A stretch of DNA of 50,364 nucleotides. Origin: a virus. Taxonomy: Duplodnaviria; Heunggongvirae; Uroviricota; Caudoviricetes. Below are positions 1,009 to 50,364 of the stretch, piece by piece (position 1 is the first letter of the stretch; each line of letters starts with the position of its first letter). The stretch lies in IMG/VR virus record IMGVR_UViG_2563366831_000011, positions 1 to 50,364 of that record. The stretch is one strand, 5' to 3'. Position numbers and translations under genes: made by a program. The notes beneath the pieces were generated by a model that did not search any database, was not told the DNA's origin, and saw nothing but the letters and a program-made list of their open reading frames with translations.

Positions 1009-1083
1009 GTCCTCTTAGTTAAATGGATATAACGAGCCCCTCCTAAGGGCTAATTGCAGGTTCGATTCCTGCAGGGGACACCA
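1009..1083 (+). tRNA. argW: tRNA-Arg (anticodon CCU)
   Basis: 75-nt sequence GTCCTCTTAGTT...GGTTCGATTCCTGCAGGGGACACCA folds as a cloverleaf by eye; anticodon loop CT-CCT-AA; ends in CCA. Confidence 0.9.
1069..1083 (+). repeat. attL core: 15-bp direct repeat CTGCAGGGGACACCA (tRNA 3-prime end)
   Basis: Identical 15-mer recurs at 48661..48675; integrase lies immediately inside. Confidence 0.65.
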
Positions 1084-1178
1084 TTTATCAGTTCGCTCCC
1101 ATCCGTACCAGTCCGTAAAATCCCCTGAATATCAAGCCTTCCGTAGATTTACAGTTCGTCATGGTTCGCGTCAGATCG

Positions 1179-1244
1179 TTGACAGCCGCACTACATGACG
1201 GGTAAAAAGTGGATAAAATAATTTTACCCACCGGATTTTTACCC
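1179..1244 (+). promoter_or_regulatory. int upstream region with perfect TTGACA hexamer and three copies of 8-mer TTTTACCC (two direct, one inverted)
   Basis: TTGACA at 1179..1184; GGGTAAAA 1200..1207 inverted against TTTTACCC 1222..1229; TTTTACCC again at 1237..1244 directly before the int ATG; -10 element ambiguous. Confidence 0.35.
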
Positions 1245-2405
1245 ATGCTCACCGTTAAGCAGATTGAAGCAGCAAAGCCGAAAGAAAAACCATACCGCCT
1301 TCTCGATGGTAATGGACTGTACCTTTATGTCCCTGTATCCGGGAAAAAGGTATGGCAGCTTCGCTACAAGATTGACGGTAAGGAGAAAGTCCTAACCGTA
1401 GGAAAATATCCGCTAATGACTTTGCAGGAGGCAAGGGATAAGGCATGGACTGCGAGGAAAGACATCTCGGTTGGCATCGATCCGGTAAAGGCGAAAAAGG
1501 CTTCGTCTAACAACAATTCATTTAGTGCGATTTACAAGGAATGGTACGAGCACAAGAAGCAAGTCTGGTCAGTAGGCTATGCAAATGAACTTGCAAAAAT
1601 GTTTGATGACGACATTTTACCTATCATCGGCGGCCTTGAAATTCAGGATATTGAGCCGATGCAACTACTGGAAGTAATCCGCAGATTTGAAGATCGCGGT
1701 GCAATGGAGCGAGCCAACAAAGCCCGCAGAAGATGCGGCGAGGTTTTCCGTTACGCTATTGTCACCGGCAGGGCTAAATATAACCCGGCACCTGACCTTG
1801 CTGACGCCATGAAAGGATACCGCAAGAAGAACTTCCCGTTTCTTCCTGCAGACCAGATCCCGGCATTCAACAAAGCACTGGCAACATTTTCAGGAAGTAT
1901 CGTATCGCTCATTGCGACCAAAGTTTTACGCTACACAGCCCTAAGAACGAAAGAGCTTCGTTCCATGCTATGGAAGAACGTCGATTTTGAAAACAGGATT
2001 ATCACCATCGACGCCAGCGTGATGAAGGGACGCAAGATTCATGTGGTCCCGATGTCGGACCAGGTGGTTGAACTTCTCACTACGCTAAGCTCCATCACTA
2101 AACCAGTATCAGAGTTTGTTTTTGCCGGACGCAACGATAAGAAGAAGCCAATCTGCGAGAACGCGGTATTGCTTGTGATCAAACAAATCGGCTATGAGGG
2201 TCTGGAAAGCGGTCACGGATTCAGGCATGAATTCAGCACGATTATGAACGAGCACGAATGGCCTGCTGATGCTATTGAAGTGCAACTTGCACATGCCAAC
2301 GGCGGATCTGTGCGCGGAATTTACAACCATGCTCAGTATCTCGATAAGCGCAGAGAAATGATGCAGTGGTGGGCTGATTACATCGATGGTCGTGCAGGAG
2401 TGTAA
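1245..2405 (+). CDS. intS: Tyrosine recombinase, P4-type phage integrase
   Basis: 386 aa from MLTVKQIEAAKPKEKPYRLLDGNGLYLYV, the typical P4-type integrase N-terminus; adjacent to tRNA att site; the tracked ORF begins 12 codons upstream at 1209. Confidence 0.85.
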   Translation: MLTVKQIEAAKPKEKPYRLLDGNGLYLYVPVSGKKVWQLRYKIDGKEKVLTVGKYPLMTLQEARDKAWTARKDISVGIDPVKAKKASSNNNSFSAIYKEWYEHKKQVWSVGYANELAKMFDDDILPIIGGLEIQDIEPMQLLEVIRRFEDRGAMERANKARRRCGEVFRYAIVTGRAKYNPAPDLADAMKGYRKKNFPFLPADQIPAFNKALATFSGSIVSLIATKVLRYTALRTKELRSMLWKNVDFENRIITIDASVMKGRKIHVVPMSDQVVELLTTLSSITKPVSEFVFAGRNDKKKPICENAVLLVIKQIGYEGLESGHGFRHEFSTIMNEHEWPADAIEVQLAHANGGSVRGIYNHAQYLDKRREMMQWWADYIDGRAGV

Positions 2406-4080: not shown

Positions 4081-4758
4081 TCAGTTGCCGTACTGGTCTC
4101 TATAGTATGATTTTATTTGTGAAATTTCTGATGTTGTCTTCGAAGTTGAAAAGATAAGAACTTCCGCATAGTTAACGTTATTCGCGGCAGTCGCCGCCAG
4201 CGTTAGCGGAGCATTCTGGTAGGTAATAGACGATGCCGCGGCTACGGTTATGGTCGCGTCGTTGACATACACCGTCTCGGTGTCAGTTATCGGGTCGTAG
4301 TTCACGATCACAAGATCAATGCCTGTGGATAAGGTCACCCCTCCCTGCTGGGTTGATGACCCTGTTTTGTAATAGTAGAGCTTGTTATCTGTCTGTGCCT
4401 GTAGCCGCAGATGGGGCCCCGCGATTAAAAAGGTAGCTTGTGTGGTGTTATCTCGCTTGAAAGCGAAGGCGTAGCAATAGCCGTTTTCCGCTGTAGCAGG
4501 GTAGACATTCTCAGATGTGACGCCGCCATTTGCGGTTAGCGCACTTTTCATCGTCTTGATTCCGTTCAGCGTCGACGCTGAGATTGCAGAACCTAATGCA
4601 ATATTCATATCGCCAGCGCGGTCTGCAAGAGTTGATACTCGCCAGTCAAAATAGTGCGAAGGGTTCCACCTGGCTGTTTTATCATCGCGCTCGGTATAGG
4701 TGGACTGAATACCGCTATTAACGGCGTTTGGAACCTGTAAAAAAGTACAAATTGCCAT
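4081..4758 (-). CDS. Hypothetical tail-fibre-associated protein
   Basis: 225 aa; AAGGA SD; directly downstream of the tailspike gene on the same strand; Ser/Thr/Asn-rich, beta-rich appearance. Confidence 0.5.
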   Translation of the reverse strand: MAICTFLQVPNAVNSGIQSTYTERDDKTARWNPSHYFDWRVSTLADRAGDMNIALGSAISASTLNGIKTMKSALTANGGVTSENVYPATAENGYCYAFAFKRDNTTQATFLIAGPHLRLQAQTDNKLYYYKTGSSTQQGGVTLSTGIDLVIVNYDPITDTETVYVNDATITVAAASSITYQNAPLTLAATAANNVNYAEVLIFSTSKTTSEISQIKSYYRDQYGN

Positions 4759-4769
4759 GGGTGTATTCC

Positions 4770-6899
4770 TTATTTTCTTAGGGATTGTACGGCGTAGTTC
4801 AGCAGTACTCGTTTTGCCTGATACGCGCCGATAATTCTGGCACCTCTGGCGTTAGGATGTGGGTCTGCGGGATTTGTTGTCGAATATGCATAGCCGTTCT
4901 GAAATGCAAAATTAGAATTCTTTATGAGGTCTCTTACATTGAATCCCAGCATTTTATAGGTTGACTGGATATTATCAAAAACGCTCTCACGCTTAATGTG
5001 ATTGTCGCTATACCAGCGCTCAAGGAAAATAGGCAATTTAGGAATCGCTGATTGAACACGTTCAACTATTGCACTATATCCGTTGAGAAAATCTGTGTCA
5101 GAAAGAGCATAATCATTTTCCCCAAGATTAATAAACGCGACATCCGGCTGAAAATATTGTATCCAGTATTGCTGATAAGACGCTGTTTGATTCAGGTAAT
5201 ACTGAAATGTTGCACCTCCTCTTGCGTAACGAATGACTCTGACGCCGCCAGCAGAGTTGATGCAATTGAAGCTGATCAGGGCAGGATAGCCTGCCTGACC
5301 AGATGCGGGAGGTTCAATTTCCAGGGCGAATCGACCTGAGTTCGGCCCCAGACCCTCCACCCTAACGATTGTTATCGTTTCGCTACCCTCAGGGTTATTC
5401 GGTATTGTGGCTGTTTGCCATTCCCCTGAACCCGCCGGGCCGGTGGAACCATCGTCATTCCTGTCGGTTGCACGGAACCGGAACTGACTAGATGTTCCGG
5501 CGTCTCCGGTACCAGTAAAACCGACCTCGACAACGTCGTGCTGATAAATGGGGTTGCTGCGGGCCGAATCTTTTACGCGAAAAAACAGGTTAGTTCGTCC
5601 AGCCCACGGTACTAGAGCAAAACTCAATGGTGCACATTTTTTCCCATAGGTCTGGTTATCGACCCAGCCAGTATAAACTAACTCCATATTCAGCAGATCT
5701 CTTGACGCTGTGTTATCGTTTGACGGTGCAAAATAACCGATACCCCCATGCCCAAGATTTGCTGCAAAAAGGCTGTACATAGCGTCAATGGCACCCAATC
5801 CCCCTGTGCCTGCAGTGAGAGAGTCACCCTGACAAAAAATAGTTAGATATCCTCCTGTGTATGCCCTTTCCTGCATCGCGATCATGTAATCAAGAAGACC
5901 AGTCTCTGGCAAGCTTGATGCAGCCTGAGAACCTCCTGACCCCGGCAATAGCAATTGGTCGTCGCTTCCGAGAATAGCGAATGGCGAAGATGAGTAGCCC
6001 TTTAAAATAGAACATCCGGCATCTTCTAAAGAATCAGTAGTTAAAAAAGATGCCATCTGGTTATCGCTTCCCATTACAGATAATGGCTTGCCTGGGATAC
6101 CGTAACCATATTTGATATCTGCCCCAGCATCGCGCATTCTGTCGCTATCATTGCCGTATTCAAGGACCTGATAATCAGTGCCTATGATTACGAATTTTTC
6201 ATCTCCGTATCCACTAAGAAATCTTACCCCTGCAAATATCCACGTTGAGGGCATCTGACGTCCGGTAGGCTGCAGCGTTCCGTCAACGTTTACTACCTCA
6301 ATAGCGAGCGTGTCGTCATTGTCAGTGCGATAATAAGCATTTGACCCAACAGGAATATTTCCAGCGTCTGCATCTGCCTGCGCCGCAGCCAGCGTCGGAA
6401 ACTCGCGGATTGTCCCTGTTATGGCCGCTGTACCCGGCTGCTTTGCCTGCAATACGGCCACGCCTGCTTTGTTTTGATACTGCCATGCAGCAGAAAGCGC
6501 ATCTGGACCTTGGGCTACCCAGAATGACTGCCCTTCAGTCGTTGCGGCCAGCCCGGCAATAGTGCCATCAGGATCGCTTGAGGTTTTATAGAATGTGAAC
6601 TTATTCCGTGCATATTCAGAGGCATCATTCTTGTACTCTTCAGCCTGCGCAGCTGAACCTGCGGCTGCCGTTGCCGATTCGGATGAGGCAGCGGCCGAAG
6701 TAGCAGCACTTTGTTCGGCCGTTTCTGCTGAGTTCTTGGCAGCTTCAGCCGCAGTTGCAGCATTAATCGCTTCCTGAGTGGTGGCGCTAATATCCTGATA
6801 GCCCTGCTGGACCTCGATCAGGTACTGCTTTGCCTCTGCGGCACTCACGGACGCCTCTGCCGCGAACTGTGCCGTTTGCTGTGTGTCGGTAGTCGCCAT
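4770..6899 (-). CDS. Tailspike/tail fibre with C-terminal SGNH (GDSL-like) esterase domain
   Basis: 709 aa from MATTDTQ (AGGAAA SD; tracked ORF extends to a GTG at 6920); Ala-rich N-terminus; SGNH blocks visible: FCQGDSLTAG (block I), FINLGENDYA (block III), PADPHPNARG (block V). Confidence 0.7.
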   Translation of the reverse strand: MATTDTQQTAQFAAEASVSAAEAKQYLIEVQQGYQDISATTQEAINAATAAEAAKNSAETAEQSAATSAAASSESATAAAGSAAQAEEYKNDASEYARNKFTFYKTSSDPDGTIAGLAATTEGQSFWVAQGPDALSAAWQYQNKAGVAVLQAKQPGTAAITGTIREFPTLAAAQADADAGNIPVGSNAYYRTDNDDTLAIEVVNVDGTLQPTGRQMPSTWIFAGVRFLSGYGDEKFVIIGTDYQVLEYGNDSDRMRDAGADIKYGYGIPGKPLSVMGSDNQMASFLTTDSLEDAGCSILKGYSSSPFAILGSDDQLLLPGSGGSQAASSLPETGLLDYMIAMQERAYTGGYLTIFCQGDSLTAGTGGLGAIDAMYSLFAANLGHGGIGYFAPSNDNTASRDLLNMELVYTGWVDNQTYGKKCAPLSFALVPWAGRTNLFFRVKDSARSNPIYQHDVVEVGFTGTGDAGTSSQFRFRATDRNDDGSTGPAGSGEWQTATIPNNPEGSETITIVRVEGLGPNSGRFALEIEPPASGQAGYPALISFNCINSAGGVRVIRYARGGATFQYYLNQTASYQQYWIQYFQPDVAFINLGENDYALSDTDFLNGYSAIVERVQSAIPKLPIFLERWYSDNHIKRESVFDNIQSTYKMLGFNVRDLIKNSNFAFQNGYAYSTTNPADPHPNARGARIIGAYQAKRVLLNYAVQSLRK

Positions 6900-33494: not shown

Positions 33495-33570
33495 TGGTGC
33501 TGTTTAACGGACTTGAACCGCTACCCATTCGCTTACAAGGCGACCGCTCTACCATTGGAGCTAAAACAGC
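33495..33570 (-). tRNA. tRNA-Thr (anticodon UGU), phage-encoded
   Basis: 76 nt; perfect 7-bp acceptor stem, 4-bp D stem, anticodon loop CTTGTAA, T-loop TTCAAGT, discriminator A then CCA (folded by eye). Confidence 0.75.
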
Positions 33571-33575
33571 ATGTT

Positions 33576-33650
33576 TGGCGGGACAGCGTGGACTCGAACC
33601 ACGATAAGAAGGTTAACAGCCTTCCGTAATGACCTTTATACGACTGACCC
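33576..33650 (-). tRNA. tRNA-Asn-like (anticodon GUU), possibly degenerate
   Basis: 75 nt; 5-bp anticodon stem with loop CTGTTAA, T-stem and TTCGAGT loop, terminal CCA; one mismatch each in acceptor and D stems. Confidence 0.45.
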
Positions 33651-47176: not shown

Positions 47177-47226
47177 GCGATCGGTTAAGTGCTATAGTAA
47201 TGCGCTTTTGTATTTATGGAGTGAAT

Positions 47227-47925
47227 ATGAAAAATATCCTACTGGCATCATTGTTAGTGGCATCGCCGGGTGCATTTGCAGCCAGCTTTGACTGCCAAAA
47301 GGCTTCGACAGCAATCGAACATAAAATCTGCGATAACGAACGTCTGTCAAAATTAGACGAACAGCTTAGCTCTGCCTATTCTAGTGCCCTCAAAGAAAAC
47401 CCAGAGAACGCAGACACCCTAAAAATGGTTCAACGTCAGTGGGTAAATATGCGTGGAAAACTCACTGATAATAAGGCTCTGGAGCTGGCTTATCTTATCC
47501 AAATTAATGGCCTCAAAGGTTTGGGGAGTTCAGTCAGCGTAACAGCGGCCAATGAGATACCCACGTCGACGCAGAAACATTCTGAAGAGCAGGAAGAAAC
47601 AAGTAAGGCAGAAGTTAAGTCGGTCAAGAACGGCAATAAGCTAACCTTAGAGTCATTCCGAGCTAAATATGTAGAAGTAGATGGTGAGTATTACAGCACG
47701 ACATCCATTCCTAGAGGCAGTTCGTTCTTGTTCACTTGCGCCAGTCGTATTGCTGATGACCAAGTGAATGTTTGGAAGAAACATGCAGCCAAAGAGGGCA
47801 AAATCGACCTATTCTTTGAGGTTGAGAATCACTTACACACTGCTATGTTGAACGCCAATTTCCAGAAGTTGAATTCAGACCCTGCCAAAAGAGGTATTTG
47901 TAATCTGATTAACGCAGTGCCGTAA
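47227..47925 (+). CDS. Secreted LprI-like (DUF1311-type) protein
   Basis: 232 aa from MKNILLASLLVASPGAFA (signal peptide, GGAG SD); then FDCQKASTAIEHKICDNERLSKLDEQLSSAY resembling the recalled DUF1311 pattern. Confidence 0.55.
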   Translation: MKNILLASLLVASPGAFAASFDCQKASTAIEHKICDNERLSKLDEQLSSAYSSALKENPENADTLKMVQRQWVNMRGKLTDNKALELAYLIQINGLKGLGSSVSVTAANEIPTSTQKHSEEQEETSKAEVKSVKNGNKLTLESFRAKYVEVDGEYYSTTSIPRGSSFLFTCASRIADDQVNVWKKHAAKEGKIDLFFEVENHLHTAMLNANFQKLNSDPAKRGICNLINAVP

Positions 47926-47934
47926 GTAAATTTA

Positions 47935-47963
47935 GGGCCACAGTTGTGGCCTTAAATATTTTT
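47935..47963 (+). terminator. Intrinsic terminator
   Basis: GGGCCACA-GT-TGTGGCC followed by T-rich tract. Confidence 0.5.
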
Positions 47964-48161: not shown

Positions 48162-48329
48162 ATGCACTTCCGAGTCACAGGTGAATGGAATGGAGAGCCA
48201 TTCGACAGGGTTATCGAAGCAGAGGACATCAACGACTGCTATAACCACTGGATGATATGGGCGCAGATAGCGCATGCAGACGTAACCAATATTCGAATTG
48301 AAGAACTGAAAGAACACCAAGCCGCCTGA
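48162..48329 (+). CDS. Small hypothetical protein (55 aa)
   Basis: GGAGATGATAA region upstream of the ATG; followed by an intrinsic terminator. Confidence 0.35.
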   Translation: MHFRVTGEWNGEPFDRVIEAEDINDCYNHWMIWAQIAHADVTNIRIEELKEHQAA

Positions 48330-48341
48330 TGGCGGTTTTTT
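48321..48341 (+). terminator. Intrinsic terminator
   Basis: GCCGCC-TGAT-GGCGG followed by TTTTTT. Confidence 0.55.
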
Positions 48342-48352
48342 ATTGCCTGATT

Positions 48353-48369
48353 TGCAGGTTCGATTCCCT
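48353..48369 (+). other. Fragment matching the argW T-arm (TTGCAGGTTCGATTCC)
   Basis: 16-nt identity to tRNA positions 1054..1069, upstream of the excisionase-like gene; non-overlapping with the attR core. Confidence 0.5.
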
Positions 48370-48386
48370 ATTCGGAGATAGCACTC

Positions 48387-48587
48387 ATGCAACACGAACT
48401 ACAGCCTGATTCACTGGTTGATTTGAAATTCATCATGGCCGATACTGGCTTCGGTAAAACCTTCATCTACGACCGGATTAAGTCCGGCGACCTGCCAAAA
48501 GCCAAAGTTATCCACGGACGAGCAAGATGGTTATATCGTGACCATTGTGAATTCAAAAATAAGCTCTTAAGCCGCGCTAATGGGTAA
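48387..48587 (+). CDS. torI: AlpA/TorI-family excisionase (recombination directionality factor)
   Basis: 66 aa; FIYDRIKSGDLPKAKVIHGRARWL fits the AlpA winged-helix pattern; recalled as the KplE1 TorI sequence; lies between tRNA-derived repeats at the prophage end. Confidence 0.6.
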   Translation: MQHELQPDSLVDLKFIMADTGFGKTFIYDRIKSGDLPKAKVIHGRARWLYRDHCEFKNKLLSRANG

Positions 48588-48660
48588 AATAGCGGGTAAA
48601 ATATTTCTCACATCTAAAAAATATCATTCCAATCAACCCCCTGCCGCGCCAAGTAGATGT

Positions 48661-48675
48661 CTGCAGGGGACACCA
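48661..48675 (+). repeat. attR core: 15-bp direct repeat CTGCAGGGGACACCA
   Basis: Exact copy of the tRNA 3-prime end at 1069..1083. Confidence 0.65.
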
Positions 48676-49116
48676 GATACCCTTCAAACGAAATCTACCT
48701 TCACCCCGTAAAAGATGGGTTTGGCAGCACACTTGCCTTATATCTACTCATTTTTACTGCAACAGGTTGAAATCTCAGCACTGTCAGAAAGCGCTGATGA
48801 CTAAACAGCCCTGGGCCGGGCGATGTAACCATCACACAGAATCCTGATAGCGAAATATGGCGTGACTCGATACTTCACTCCGCAATGCATTCCTTGATGA
48901 ATTCGCAGGACCGTGATACACGGGACAGGTCACTGAATGACGACAATGTCCTGGAAATCAGCGAACCGCGCATCTGAAGTACATTTGAGCGACTGTACCA
49001 GAACATGAATGAGGCGTTTGGATTAGGCGATTATTAGCAGGGCTAAGCATTTTACTATTATTATTTTCCGGTTGAGGGATATAGAGCTATCGACAACAAC
49101 CGGAAAAAGTTTACGT

Positions 49117-50364
49117 CTATATTGCTGAAGGTACAGGCGTTTCCATAACTATTTGCTCGCGTTTTTTACTCAAGAAGAAAATGCCAAATAGCAACATCAG
49201 GCAGACAATACCCGAAATTGCGAAGAAAACTGTCTGGTAGCCTGCGTGGTCAAAGAGTATCCCAGTCGGCGTTGAAAGCAGCACAATCCCAAGCGAACTG
49301 GCAATTTGAAAACCAATCAGAAAGATCGTCGACGACAGGCGCTTATCAAAGTTTGCCACGCTGTATTTGAAGACGGATATGACACAAAGTGGAACCTCAA
49401 TGGCATGTAACAACTTCACTAATGAAATAATCCAGGGGTTAACGAACAGCGCGCAGGAAAGGATACGCAACGCCATAATCACAACTCCGATAAGTAATGC
49501 ATTTTTTGGCCCTACCCGATTCACAAAGAAAGGAATAATCGCCATGCACAGCGCTTCGAGTACCACCTGGAATGAGTTGAGATAACCATACAGGCGCGTT
49601 CCTACATCGTGTGATTCGAATAAACCTGCATAAAAGACAGGAAAAAGTTGTTGATCAAAAATGTTATAGAAAGACCACGTCCCCACAATAAATATGACGA
49701 AAACCCAGAAGTTTCGATCCTTGAAAACTGCGATAAAATCCTCTTTTTTTACCCCTCCCGCATCTGCCGCTACGCACTGGTGATCCTTATCTTTAAAACG
49801 CATGTTGATCATCATAAATACAGCGCCAAATAGCGAGACCAACCAGAAGTTGATATGGGGACTGATACTAAAAAATATGCCGGCAAAGAACGCGCCAATA
49901 GCATAGCCAAAAGATCCCCAGGCGCGCGCTGTTCCATATTCGAAATGAAAATTTCGCGCCATTTTTTCGGTGAAGCTATCAAGCAAACCGCATCCCGCCA
50001 GATACCCCAAGCCAAAAAATAGCGCCCCCAGAATTAGACCTACAGAAAAATTGCTTTGCAGTAACGGTTCATAAACGTAAATCATAAACGGTCCGGTCAA
50101 GACCAGGATGAAACTCATACACCAGATGAGCGGTTTCTTCAGACCGAGTTTATCCTGAACGATGCCGTAGAACATCATAAATAGAATGCTGGTAAACTGG
50201 TTGACCGAATAAAGTGTACCTAATTCCGTCCCTGTCAACCCTAGATGTCCTTTCAGCCAAATAGCGTATAACGACCACCACAGCGACCAGGAAATAAAAA
50301 AGAGAAATGAGTAACTGGATGCAAAACGATAGTACGCATTTCTGAATGGAATATTCAGTGCCAT
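49117..50364 (-). CDS. cscB: Sucrose:proton symporter-like MFS transporter
   Basis: 415 aa; many hydrophobic helices; N-terminus MALNIPFRNAYYRFASSYSFLFFISWSLWW recognised from memory as CscB/LacY family; start codon at the last three bases of the window. Confidence 0.8.
   Translation of the reverse strand: MALNIPFRNAYYRFASSYSFLFFISWSLWWSLYAIWLKGHLGLTGTELGTLYSVNQFTSILFMMFYGIVQDKLGLKKPLIWCMSFILVLTGPFMIYVYEPLLQSNFSVGLILGALFFGLGYLAGCGLLDSFTEKMARNFHFEYGTARAWGSFGYAIGAFFAGIFFSISPHINFWLVSLFGAVFMMINMRFKDKDHQCVAADAGGVKKEDFIAVFKDRNFWVFVIFIVGTWSFYNIFDQQLFPVFYAGLFESHDVGTRLYGYLNSFQVVLEALCMAIIPFFVNRVGPKNALLIGVVIMALRILSCALFVNPWIISLVKLLHAIEVPLCVISVFKYSVANFDKRLSSTIFLIGFQIASSLGIVLLSTPTGILFDHAGYQTVFFAISGIVCLMLLFGIFFLSKKREQIVMETPVPSAI

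Follow-up and report, generated by a model that had tools for sequence, protein, structure and literature searches.

Mobile elements that integrate into tRNA genes ordinarily leave a displaced 3' fragment of the tRNA at their distal junction; such elements are reportedly the subject of Reiter 1989, as cited in PMC8787464. Among the described systems that use argW as a target, KplE1 (CPS-53) of E. coli K-12 is a 10-kb remnant in which intS lies beside the tRNA gene, with torI as the final gene, next to attR. Its att core was defined experimentally as the 16-mer CTGCAGGGGACACCAT, and the crossover was placed there (PMC2951348). Work on KplE1 further indicated that the control of excision in the IntS/TorI family rests on the expression of the excisionase gene, described its promoter, PtorI, as uncharacterised, and showed that TorI sites are inactivated by mutating their GTTCG, GATCG or GTCCG pentamers (PMC2951348).

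Our window, by which we mean the whole stretch of 50,364 nucleotides analysed (features lie on the plus strand unless stated otherwise), very probably holds a single 47.6-kb lambdoid prophage (1084-48660), inserted in argW by an IntS/TorI module of the KplE1/HK620/Sf6/CUS-3 type. It shares with KplE1 the argW target and the core, but it is complete-looking rather than a remnant. The target gene, a tRNA-Arg(CCT) at 1009..1083 (ARAGORN; Rfam tRNA, 63 bits), is identical to the argW of an empty site. When the window is aligned with that site, the match extends to 1083 (1 mismatch in 1083 nt) and resumes at 48661 (3 in 1560 nt), which argues for one insertion with one 15-nt core. This core, CTGCAGGGGACACCA, is found by exact-match search at 1069..1083 (attL) and at 48661..48675 (attR), the two matches comparing with 0.07 expected by chance in the window. 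Together with T1084, the attL copy reads as the published 16-mer, of which 15 of the 16 nt are duplicated at the prophage ends, because in the host lineage, just as at the empty site, the tRNA is followed by a G. The host flank (48676..50364) is identical to the prophage-free site and contains a cscB-like gene for an oligosaccharide MFS transporter (49117-50364, minus strand). The corresponding flank of KplE1 is instead dsdC, and the direct repeat here is therefore 15 nt and not 16.

The two arms of the att sites also follow the KplE1 plan. The integrase is a P4-like heterobivalent tyrosine recombinase of the IntS type, 386 aa long (1245..2405; Pfam Arm-DNA-bind_3, Phage_int_M and Phage_integrase) and 97.6-99.0% identical to those of HK620, Sf6 and CUS-3; its gene adjoins argW, from which its transcription points away. 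Between the two genes, scanning of the P' arm of attL (1084..1244) with published site definitions (PMC2951348) predicted five TorI sites, with GTTCG, GTCCG or GATCG pentamers at 1091, 1111, 1154, 1164 and 1174, and IntS arm-type repeats reading GGGTAAAA or TTTTACCC at 1200, 1222 and 1237 and GGATAAAA at 1211, the repeats (1200-1244) overlapping the intS promoter. On the other side, two direct GGGTAAAA repeats, predicted as IntS arm-type sites of the P arm (48582..48601), overlap the torI stop codon at a spot where HK620 has an annotated attP repeat. KplE1 likewise has GGGTAAAA arm repeats and TorI sites of the GTTCG type, five in number, and judged by sequence the predicted TorI and IntS arm-type sites of attL and attR agree with those of the module. 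Directly before the attR core, GATGT (48656..48660) is kept in nearly all lineages and forms an inverted repeat across TGCAGGG with ACACC, located at 48678..48682 in attP terms and here at 48671-48675; GATGT is a putative left core-type (C) site.

At its right end the prophage carries two pieces of argW, both in the orientation of the tRNA. The T-arm piece, TTGCAGGTTCGATTCC, is an exact 16-nt copy of argW 1054..1069, the segment on the left (B) side of attB that corresponds to tRNA nt about 47-62 and spans the end of the variable loop, the 5' T-stem, the T-loop and the first two bases of the 3' T-stem. It lies at 48352..48367, slightly off the 48353..48369 given by the initial annotation, which had the 3' piece correctly at 48661..48675, an exact copy of argW 1069..1083. 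In argW the two pieces abut with one base in common (C1069), whereas in the prophage they are separated by 293 nt (48368..48660) that include an ORF of 66 aa (48387..48587). The encoded protein is a TorI-type recombination directionality factor (RDF), or excisionase (PDB 1z4h, TorI, E=6.6e-43). The arrangement proposed earlier, in which pieces contiguous in the tRNA stand about 290 bp apart around an AlpA/TorI-like gene, was accordingly borne out, both pieces being exact and unique copies of adjacent parts of argW. Since the search with TTGCAGGTTCGATTCC (up to 2 mismatches) gave 2 matches in the window against 0.02 expected, and that with the core was similarly improbable, a chance origin of either match could be ruled out.

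The two pieces differ in nature. The 3' piece is the displaced repeat known from ordinary tRNA-integrating elements: the phage copy of the core supplies the argW 3' end (from 1069) upon integration and so restores the gene at attL. It alone, and not the T-arm piece, is the true att core at which IntS exchanges strands; 48661..48675 is the crossover region, and host DNA picks up within or after it. The T-arm piece, unlike such a repeat, is phage-borne, stands apart from the repeat and is not made by integration. Its extra copy is absent from prophage-free attB and is therefore phage DNA, and both the empty site and the free phage genomes rule out a host origin. It is neither host DNA nor a junction, but belongs to the phage and accompanies torI when the phage is excised and packaged. 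The same order, that is T-arm block, torI, two GGGTAAAA repeats, GATGT, CTGCAGGGGACACCAT, P' arm and int, is found in HK620, Sf6, KplE1 of K-12 and a circular replicon of 39,448 bp. From the block to int, HK620 (AF335538) and Sf6 (AF547987) are 97-98% identical to the window, their torI homologues being hkaC and gene 18, respectively, and K-12 is identical to it through the core, starting about 15 nt before the T-arm block. In a well-known family of argW-integrating phages, both tRNA pieces are thus part of the regular make-up.

This finding bears on both explanations that had been offered at the outset. The suggestion that the pieces reflect the attP architecture of this integrase family is right insofar as the T-arm piece comes with the phage as a constant component of the IntS/TorI module. 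The piece is not a crossover point, however, and a 135-bp attR that starts from the 3' end of torI and lacks it recombines in vitro (PMC3509656). Of the two conditions that the initial annotation set as a refutation, one holds, since excision junctions show a single simple core in which the T-arm piece is uninvolved, and the other does not, since prophage-free attB sites lack the extra copy. Excision at the core that depends on IntS, TorI and IHF would be in keeping with the empty site, with the attP seen in the circular replicon and with the lack of alternative junctions, all of them indirect indications.

The other suggestion, that this strain has a history of nested or tandem integration in which a second argW element left the T-arm piece as its leftover junction, did not hold up, and we regard it as extremely unlikely. 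It is true that argW is a known hotspot, and in other genera the attR core of the TorI phage is directly followed by a second, different integrase gene (loci L009, L128, L163, L171, L195 and L020). However, the only content between the two pieces is torI, a gene of 201 nt, together with the P arm that belongs to its own module, with no remnant of a second element (integrase, arm sites or cargo). Moreover, the flanks correspond to the empty site with one simple 15-nt junction, neither motif has a further copy in the window, and the arrangement recurs base for base in the genomes of HK620 and Sf6 as well as in the circular excised replicon, where the block, present in free elements, is not derived from a host.

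A related question is raised by the CUS-3 record (CP000711), which begins and ends with the 16-mer TTGCAGGTTCGATTCC, labelled there as attL core and attR core. Were this annotation correct, the T-arm repeat would be the real att core and torI would lie outside the phage; we find this scarcely credible. The CUS-3 integrase (99% identical to ours) and its P' arm, the same as in the window, are of the IntS type, for which the KplE1 core was determined as CTGCAGGGGACACCAT (PMC2951348). In UTI89, DNA that is 100% identical to the right end of CUS-3 runs on into torI and then dsdC, and torI is inside the phage in HK620, Sf6 and the circular replicon. We also built both junctions expected from recombination at the T-arm repeat as synthetic queries. 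The argW-Tarm/torI junction occurred in 0 of 5,426 E. coli genomes, its reciprocal was never contiguous, and no such recombinants appeared among these genomes or 50,697 phage records; we therefore rejected recombination at this repeat. By labelling the T-arm repeat as the att core, the CUS-3 record therefore cuts off torI and omits the real core.

Apart from its origin, probably as a copy of the tRNA, the T-arm block is remarkable for its position. torI is the last gene before attR, so that in the free phage (HK620, the circular replicon) attP lies between the RDF gene and int; homologues at 98-100% identity are named TorI. The gene preceding its leader is a 55-aa ORF (48162..48329), homologous to a small lambda ORF upstream of xis, and is followed by a hairpin with a T run resembling an intrinsic terminator (48319..48342), directly upstream of the block. 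The terminator accounts for a weak Rfam match to STnc130 in this region, which reaches 25 bits where the cutoff is 55. Downstream of the block, the Shine-Dalgarno sequence GGAGA (48374..48378) starts 6 nt past the 16-mer, or 5 nt past the block when counted as CAGGTTCGATTCCC, and this spacing is conserved in relatives. The block thus sits between a terminator-like hairpin and the ribosome-binding site of the excisionase gene. Rho control of torI is said to be the topic of Menouni et al. 2013.

The portion of the block that is kept across genera is CAGGTTCGATTCC (48355-48367). In the form CAGGTTCGATT(C/T)CC, corresponding to tRNA nt 50-62, it lies about 5 nt ahead of the ribosome-binding sites of TorI-family genes in diverged Enterobacterales. 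The KplE1 papers (PMC2951348, PMC3509656) do not mention the T-arm block, and we found no description of this sequence ahead of TorI-family genes. Allowing up to one mismatch, we found GTTCGATT within 80 nt upstream of the gene for 28 of 36 distinct RDF proteins, and 113 of the 118 IMG/VR matches to CAGGTTCGATTCCC-N3-8-GGAG stand directly ahead of a TorI-family gene. The block even precedes an RDF that has diverged from TorI (about 45% identity, by eye and not computed), in a module whose arm sites differ but whose target is still the argW core. Across 11 clusters of related lineages, chosen for having the block, its pairwise identity was 0.91, compared with 0.33 for the upstream flank, 0.31 for the spacer and 0.58 for third codon positions of the RDF. 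On the other hand, several related modules lack the block (Klebsiella-type, Cronobacter, Dryocola, Tatumella and others), and it is therefore dispensable. Some phages have two tandem blocks, and two lineages read CAGTTCG within it. The base before CAGG in the block varies (G, C, A or T) while the core is TGCAGG in all those lineages, so that the block is mismatched to the T-stem implied by the core; for the same reason, we could rule out that the block tracks host tRNA variants. Among 43 related loci, ARAGORN found one local argW copy only, in Proteus. This gene has ACAGG/CCTGT, and no pattern matching the block emerges.

Such conservation has to be reconciled with the possibility that the block is a neutral scar. 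An ancestral attP would have contained about 30 nt of the argW 3' half, from the T-arm to CCA, and would later have been split at the crossover point by insertion of a torI-plus-P-arm segment, leaving a functionless T-arm piece. The pieces do abut in the tRNA and share its orientation, and many lineages have a T-loop-like TTCGAT just left of the core (TTCGATGTATGCAGG) and therefore T-loop-like sequence on both sides of the torI/P-arm segment. In addition, in some modules the block is missing as a clean indel of about 25-34 nt between ATTGCCTG and GGAG (L015 compared with L011). A functionless remnant would not, however, be expected to exceed so clearly both its flanks (0.31-0.33) and the synonymous positions of the RDF, or to keep a fixed distance to the Shine-Dalgarno sequence. 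In Serratia and Pantoea, moreover, the block extends two bases further into the tRNA sequence (…CCTG); the pieces therefore overlap there, which does not fit a clean split. Altogether, we consider a neutral origin of this kind rather unlikely.

Comparison with lambda suggests a promoter instead. The xis leader of lambda has a small ORF and a terminator upstream, with TTGC boxes at the same place before the excisionase gene, and the first four bases of our T-arm block (TTGC) form the second box of such a lambda-pI-like motif. The block could then be the spacer of a cII-activated promoter starting at or inside the torI ribosome-binding site, from which Int would be produced without excisionase before integration. 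HK620 is annotated here with 'promoter, phage integration' and a cII-binding site and Sf6 with 'pI', the block region being treated in these records as a predicted cII-dependent integration promoter (pI) and 'boundary sequence', and not as tRNA-like. Homology to lambda includes the terminator and the TTGC boxes and stops at 48355, and lambda pI occupies the same place before xis. Lambda differs, though, in having no T-arm-like sequence, in having xis and int adjacent on the same side of attP, and in spacing its boxes by N6, whereas the window and HK620 have TTGC-N5-TTGC. The boxes are also missing in the Edwardsiella, Hafnia, Serratia and Pantoea lineages that have the block, and the candidate -10 region falls in the unconserved spacer. 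A consensus scan of the torI leader detected no sigma-70-like promoter, and a promoter spacer would not need to be conserved in sequence. For these reasons, we doubt strongly that the block serves as part of a pI-type promoter.

The proximity to the ribosome-binding site might also point to an RNA element, in which AUU(U/C)CC, the block's 3' half in the torI mRNA leader, base-pairs with GGAG(AU) at the Shine-Dalgarno position and dampens translation of the excisionase. Indeed, the fixed spacer of about 5 nt, variable in sequence, resembles a hairpin loop; the Citrobacter-type leader permits a 6-bp pairing; and in Serratia, where the Shine-Dalgarno sequence is farther off, UUCCUG can pair with CAGGAG. 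Yet the consensus structure reaches just -3.0 kcal/mol with a covariation term of 0.06, the z-scores of single sequences (-1.6 to +0.7) are not significant and the fold differs per lineage. The best-conserved part of the block, CAGGTTCGATT, is not the part that pairs. A full T-arm hairpin forms in the Edwardsiella type only, and since the block showed no Rfam match and no covariation, we rejected a curated RNA family or a tRNA-like fold. Translational damping of this sort appears quite unlikely.

Autoregulation by the excisionase deserves consideration because the block contains GTTCG, the pentamer whose mutation abolishes the action of TorI at attL. Other RDFs, such as P2 Cox and 186 Apl, repress their own promoters, the block resembles site I4 (TGGTTCGC), and both the tandem copies and the CAGTTCG variant could be read as operator features. 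The context of TorI sites is nevertheless yAGTTCG(C/T), and although the block has the G(T/A)(T/C)CG pentamer, its flanks are atypical: the base after GTTCG is A, whereas it is C or T in 20 of 20 sites. A weight matrix made from these 20 P'-arm sites gave the block -0.95, compared with 3.9-15.0 for true sites, a score that 3.1% of all 11-mers in the window equal or exceed the block in reaching. An operator for TorI would also leave the conserved ATT(C/T)CC tail unexplained, and the spacing of the tandem copies is irregular (13-17 nt). We therefore hold a TorI operator to be highly doubtful.

The block is kept by selection in diverged modules. The reading that we therefore tentatively prefer, while recognising that it may well prove wrong, is that it is a cis-regulatory element of the excisionase gene. 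Its sequence copies the stretch of attB that directly adjoins the crossover region on the left, and it could most likely act as a mimic of the left half-site of attB, or else as an operator, to which the recombination proteins of the module itself would bind. The output of excisionase would thereby be tied to the occupancy of the recombinase. Against a half-site mimic, work on lambda Int has taught that isolated core-type half-sites are usually weakly bound by integrases.

A more specific proposal, which we think unlikely, is that the attB left half has been copied deliberately and placed ahead of the excisionase gene, so that integrase would bind a decoy half-site and either gate the expression of excisionase or hold attR/attP in an inactive loop. 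The copy of tRNA nt 50-62 would then end exactly where strand exchange starts. The core-binding and catalytic domains of the integrase would bind it, perhaps with a bridge to the arm sites that overlap the torI stop codon. By mimicking the target tRNA, the block would make the choice to excise depend on how far the recombinase occupies it. In a historical variant, the torI-plus-P-arm segment would have entered an ancestral tRNA-like attP by crossover in the T-loop, and the module itself would therefore be a fossil nested insertion.

Our analysis clarifies this locus as the product of one integration event, with prophage bounds at 1084 and 48660 and an excisionase gene owned by the phage. It also indicates that the CUS-3 reference record ends at the wrong repeat and can mislead prophage boundary calling at argW. 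The sole strongly conserved non-coding element in the torI leader is a 13-nt copy of the T-arm of the target tRNA. Should the integrase or the excisionase turn out to use this block as an operator, it would represent a new feedback link in a well-studied recombination module.

The tRNA-Arg(CCT) gene argW lies at 1009-1083 of the window, and two pieces of its 3' half recur at the right junction of the prophage. A scan of the window allowing up to two mismatches found TTGCAGGTTCGATTCC within argW (1054-1069) and again at 48352-48367 (two matches, 0.02 expected by chance), while CTGCAGGGGACACCA, the tRNA 3' end, was found at 1069-1083 and 48661-48675 (two matches, 0.07 expected). The two pieces abut within argW, where C1069 is common to both, and their right-junction copies, which keep the tRNA orientation, are separated by 293 nt. 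This interval contains a 66-aa ORF at 48387-48587 that matches the excisionase TorI (PDB 1z4h, E=6.6e-43). These matches confirm the initial annotation, which had described two separated argW pieces around an excisionase gene; its coordinates were exact for the 3'-end piece and wrong by one to two bases for the upstream one, hereafter the T-arm block.

In the prophage-free strain 2013C-3033, yfdC, argW, the flank of the window and the MFS transporter gene are all present. The window equals this empty site up to 1083 on the left (1 mismatch in 1083 nt) and from 48661 on the right (3 mismatches in 1560 nt), and the inserted DNA therefore spans 1084-48660, with both the T-arm block and torI inside it. 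Since both flanks equal the empty site, we are dealing with a single insertion bounded by one 15-nt direct repeat, which contradicts the earlier suggestion of a nested or tandem integration. A G follows the tRNA in this host lineage, which is why the repeat measures 15 nt and not 16 as published. The attR-side host gene, at 49117-50364 on the minus strand, encodes an oligosaccharide MFS transporter (cscB-like) where K-12 and UTI89 have dsdC, and the strain belongs to a lineage with a sucrose locus in place of dsdC beside argW. Among the comparison loci from other genera and IMG/VR contigs, seven (L009, L128, L163, L171, L158, L195 and L020) carry a second, different integrase gene, one example starting MKNDPSKLSLNARQVETAKPRDKAY, within 200-300 nt past the TorI-type attR core, a sign that unrelated elements are arrayed in tandem at argW there. 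The core is truncated (CTGCAGGGGACA...) in L009 and L012.

At the left end of the prophage, a P' arm of 161 nt follows argW and leads to the integrase gene (1245-2405; Arm-DNA-bind_3, Phage_int_M and Phage_integrase domains), whose product is 97.6-99.0% identical to the HK620, Sf6 and CUS-3 integrases. A sequence scan of the arm located GTTCG/GTCCG/GATCG pentamers at 1091, 1111, 1154, 1164 and 1174 and GGGTAAAA/TTTTACCC repeats at 1200-1244; in KplE1, such pentamers are the attL TorI sites and such repeats the IntS arm-type sites (PMC2951348). The argW T-loop itself contains GTTCG (1060-1064), which successive spacings of 31, 20, 43, 10 and 10 nt place approximately in phase along the helix with the five P'-arm pentamers, and which could be a sixth contact for the excisionase, within the bacterial part of attL. 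As the attL substrate used in the published work begins at this position, footprinting would have missed it.

The element body (2.4-48 kb) has a lambdoid layout, with torI as the final gene of a plus-strand block. Ahead of torI come, in order, a 55-aa ORF (48162-48329) whose lambda homologue is the small ORF preceding xis, a hairpin and T run resembling a terminator (48319-48342), the T-arm block and a GGAGA (48374-48378). Two copies of GGGTAAAA overlap the torI stop codon (48582-48601), and GATGT (48656-48660) stands directly left of the att core (48661-48675), after which host DNA begins. An inverted repeat, CCCCTGC...TGCAGGGG, surrounds the left core site (48639-48669), and nearly every lineage keeps CCCCTGC(A), at about 17 nt to the left of the core. 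The prophage also carries two tRNA genes, tRNA-Thr(TGT) and tRNA-Asn(GTT), at 33495-33650 on the minus strand. Near its right end, a 241-aa ORF (47200-47925, plus strand) with a signal-peptide-like start and a weak Pfam match to the lysozyme inhibitor LprI (E=1.7e-5) is followed by a strong terminator of its own (47930-47957), and looks like a moron gene.

The complete HK620 and Sf6 genomes, like K-12 KplE1, share an essentially identical sequence with the window over a stretch that starts about 15 nt before the T-arm block and reaches the core; in HK620 and Sf6 this stretch runs straight into the P' arm and then int. Sequencing of an excised attP had been proposed as a check, and this is in effect provided by a circular replicon of 39,448 bp from the E. 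coli 0H26 assembly, in which the T-arm block, torI, two GGGTAAAA, GATGT, CTGCAGGGGACACCAT, the P' arm and intS follow in line. This replicon is a phage of this type in its excised form. RefSeq has records of 39,448 bp or 29,741 bp from E. coli 0H24, 0H25 and 0H26 (NZ_CP081786.1, NZ_CP081778.1 and NZ_CP081694.1) that are labelled as plasmids but are apparently excised, circular phage genomes of the same type; torI, attP and intS are contiguous in NZ_CP081786.1. Every defining feature of the KplE1/HK620/Sf6/CUS-3 module that can be read from sequence is present in the window and, on that basis, the locus is a typical argW recombination module of this group. The proposal that the split pieces may reflect the attP architecture of this integrase family was right in outline.

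The published KplE1 core is the 16-nt CTGCAGGGGACACCAT, and excision was obtained in vitro from a 135-bp attR that had its left primer at the torI 3' end (PMC2951348, PMC3509656). This primer maps to 48564-48583, 197 nt downstream of the T-arm block. A synthetic query joining the argW T-arm to the torI leader matched none of 5,426 complete E. coli genomes. The reciprocal junction (orf55, T-arm block, TGCAGG..., P') was never contiguous in the phages or genomes searched, its query matching only in two parts, separated by about 533 bp that include torI. The Kapi1 and phiv205-1 records annotate the att site at the 3' 17-mer. The sole exception to this placement is the CUS-3 record (CP000711), which opens and closes with the T-arm 16-mer, labelled as attL/attR core (1713-1728 of locus L001 and 1-16 of L002); torI and the real core are missing from it. 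UTI89 carries a stretch that matches the CUS-3 right end at 100% identity and continues into torI (1749-1949 of locus L205) and then dsdC; the CUS-3 record was therefore cut at the wrong repeat. From an alignment of many lineages we infer a core layout of GATGT, N, TGCAGGG, G, ACACC, which would form an inverted repeat about an overlap of ~7 nt.

We collected TorI homologues with their flanks from one-genome-per-species bacteria and IMG/VR, obtaining 189 loci with an excisionase gene. In E. coli-type modules the block is present in 59/59 distinct upstream sequences, whatever the upstream gene, with occasional single substitutions. In diverged modules (70-88% protein identity; loci recorded as Citrobacter, Serratia, Pantoea, Enterobacter or Edwardsiella, together with relatives of the Hafnia-named excisionase) the upstream DNA is unrelated, yet CAGGTTCGATT(C/T)CC precedes GGAG(A/G)T and the start codon, with a gap of typically 5 nt (3-6 in most lineages, longer in Serratia). 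GTTCGATT, with at most one mismatch, occurs within 80 nt upstream of the genes for 28 of 36 distinct 66-aa excisionases. Across 11 clusters, which are related lineages selected for carrying the 8-mer, mean pairwise identity was 0.91 in the block, against 0.33 for the upstream DNA, 0.31 for the spacer and 0.58 for excisionase third codon positions. Searching IMG/VR for CAGGTTCGATTCCC-N3-8-GGAG gave 118 matches, 113 of them directly before a TorI-family gene; the other five were three real tRNA ends, one unrelated sequence and one site before a more distant AlpA/TorI-like gene (locus L232, reverse strand, ~4667-5010; ~45% identity, estimated by eye). This last module has the T-arm leader and the argW core with GGGCATA arm repeats instead, and a mosaic joint apparently at the start codon. 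Some phages carry two blocks in tandem (L177, L196, L199, ~60 nt upstream of the excisionase start, L163 and L011; for example ACAGGTTCGATTCCCGTCAGGTTCGATTCCCATCGGAG), irregularly spaced by 13-17 nt. Several related modules (Klebsiella-type, Cronobacter, Dryocola, Tatumella, Rouxiella, Arsenophonus) have no block, and there the ribosome-binding site directly follows the terminator or the preceding ORF.

The generally conserved part of the block is tRNA nt 50-62. The 16-nt argW match is restricted to the E. coli type, where its first four bases, TTGC, fall on the second of the TTGC boxes in a lambda-pI-like motif; lambda homology stops at 48355. HK620 and Sf6 annotators predicted a cII-dependent pI promoter at the block. 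However, the boxes are N5-spaced and absent from most block-keeping lineages, the candidate -10 is unconserved, and a promoter scan detected no sigma-70 promoter. A possible RNA element, in which (A)UU(U/C)CC of the block pairs weakly with the Shine-Dalgarno sequence, would fit the fixed spacer but leaves the best-conserved half of the block unexplained. We found no curated RNA family for the block and no conserved T-arm hairpin in the leader (consensus fold -3.0 kcal/mol, covariation term 0.06, z-scores not significant). The block also holds GTTCG, the pentamer mutated to inactivate TorI sites (PMC2951348), and is thus a candidate TorI operator; however, a weight matrix derived from 20 P'-arm sites gives it only -0.95, whereas the real sites reach 3.9-15.0, and 3.1% of the window's 11-mers score equally well.

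The right edge of the block is where attP/attB identity, and hence strand exchange, starts. As a candidate integrase half-site mimic, the block copies the left side of attB better than does the left core site that attP really has (GATGT context). Its end falls on the predicted cleavage side, and the more distant argW-targeting module of L232 also retains the block. Isolated core sites, however, usually bind weakly, and the outer stem base of the block varies although every lineage has TGCAGG in its core, so that the block and the implied T-stem disagree. An old insertion of torI and the P arm into a tRNA-like attP would fit as a neutral scar, given that the pieces are contiguous in the tRNA and that a T-loop-like TTCGAT lies beside the core in many lineages, but the conservation of the block speaks against neutrality. 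On comparative grounds, we take the block to be under selection as a putative cis-element in the leader of the excisionase gene, either derived from the tRNA or mimicking it.

We found no description in the KplE1 papers of a 13-nt T-arm copy conserved across genera before TorI-family genes, although an earlier one is possible. The torI promoter has been called uncharacterised, and excision control has been argued to target torI (PMC2951348). Altogether, the junction is ordinary and well understood; its study adds one database correction, for CUS-3, and one small, testable regulatory puzzle.
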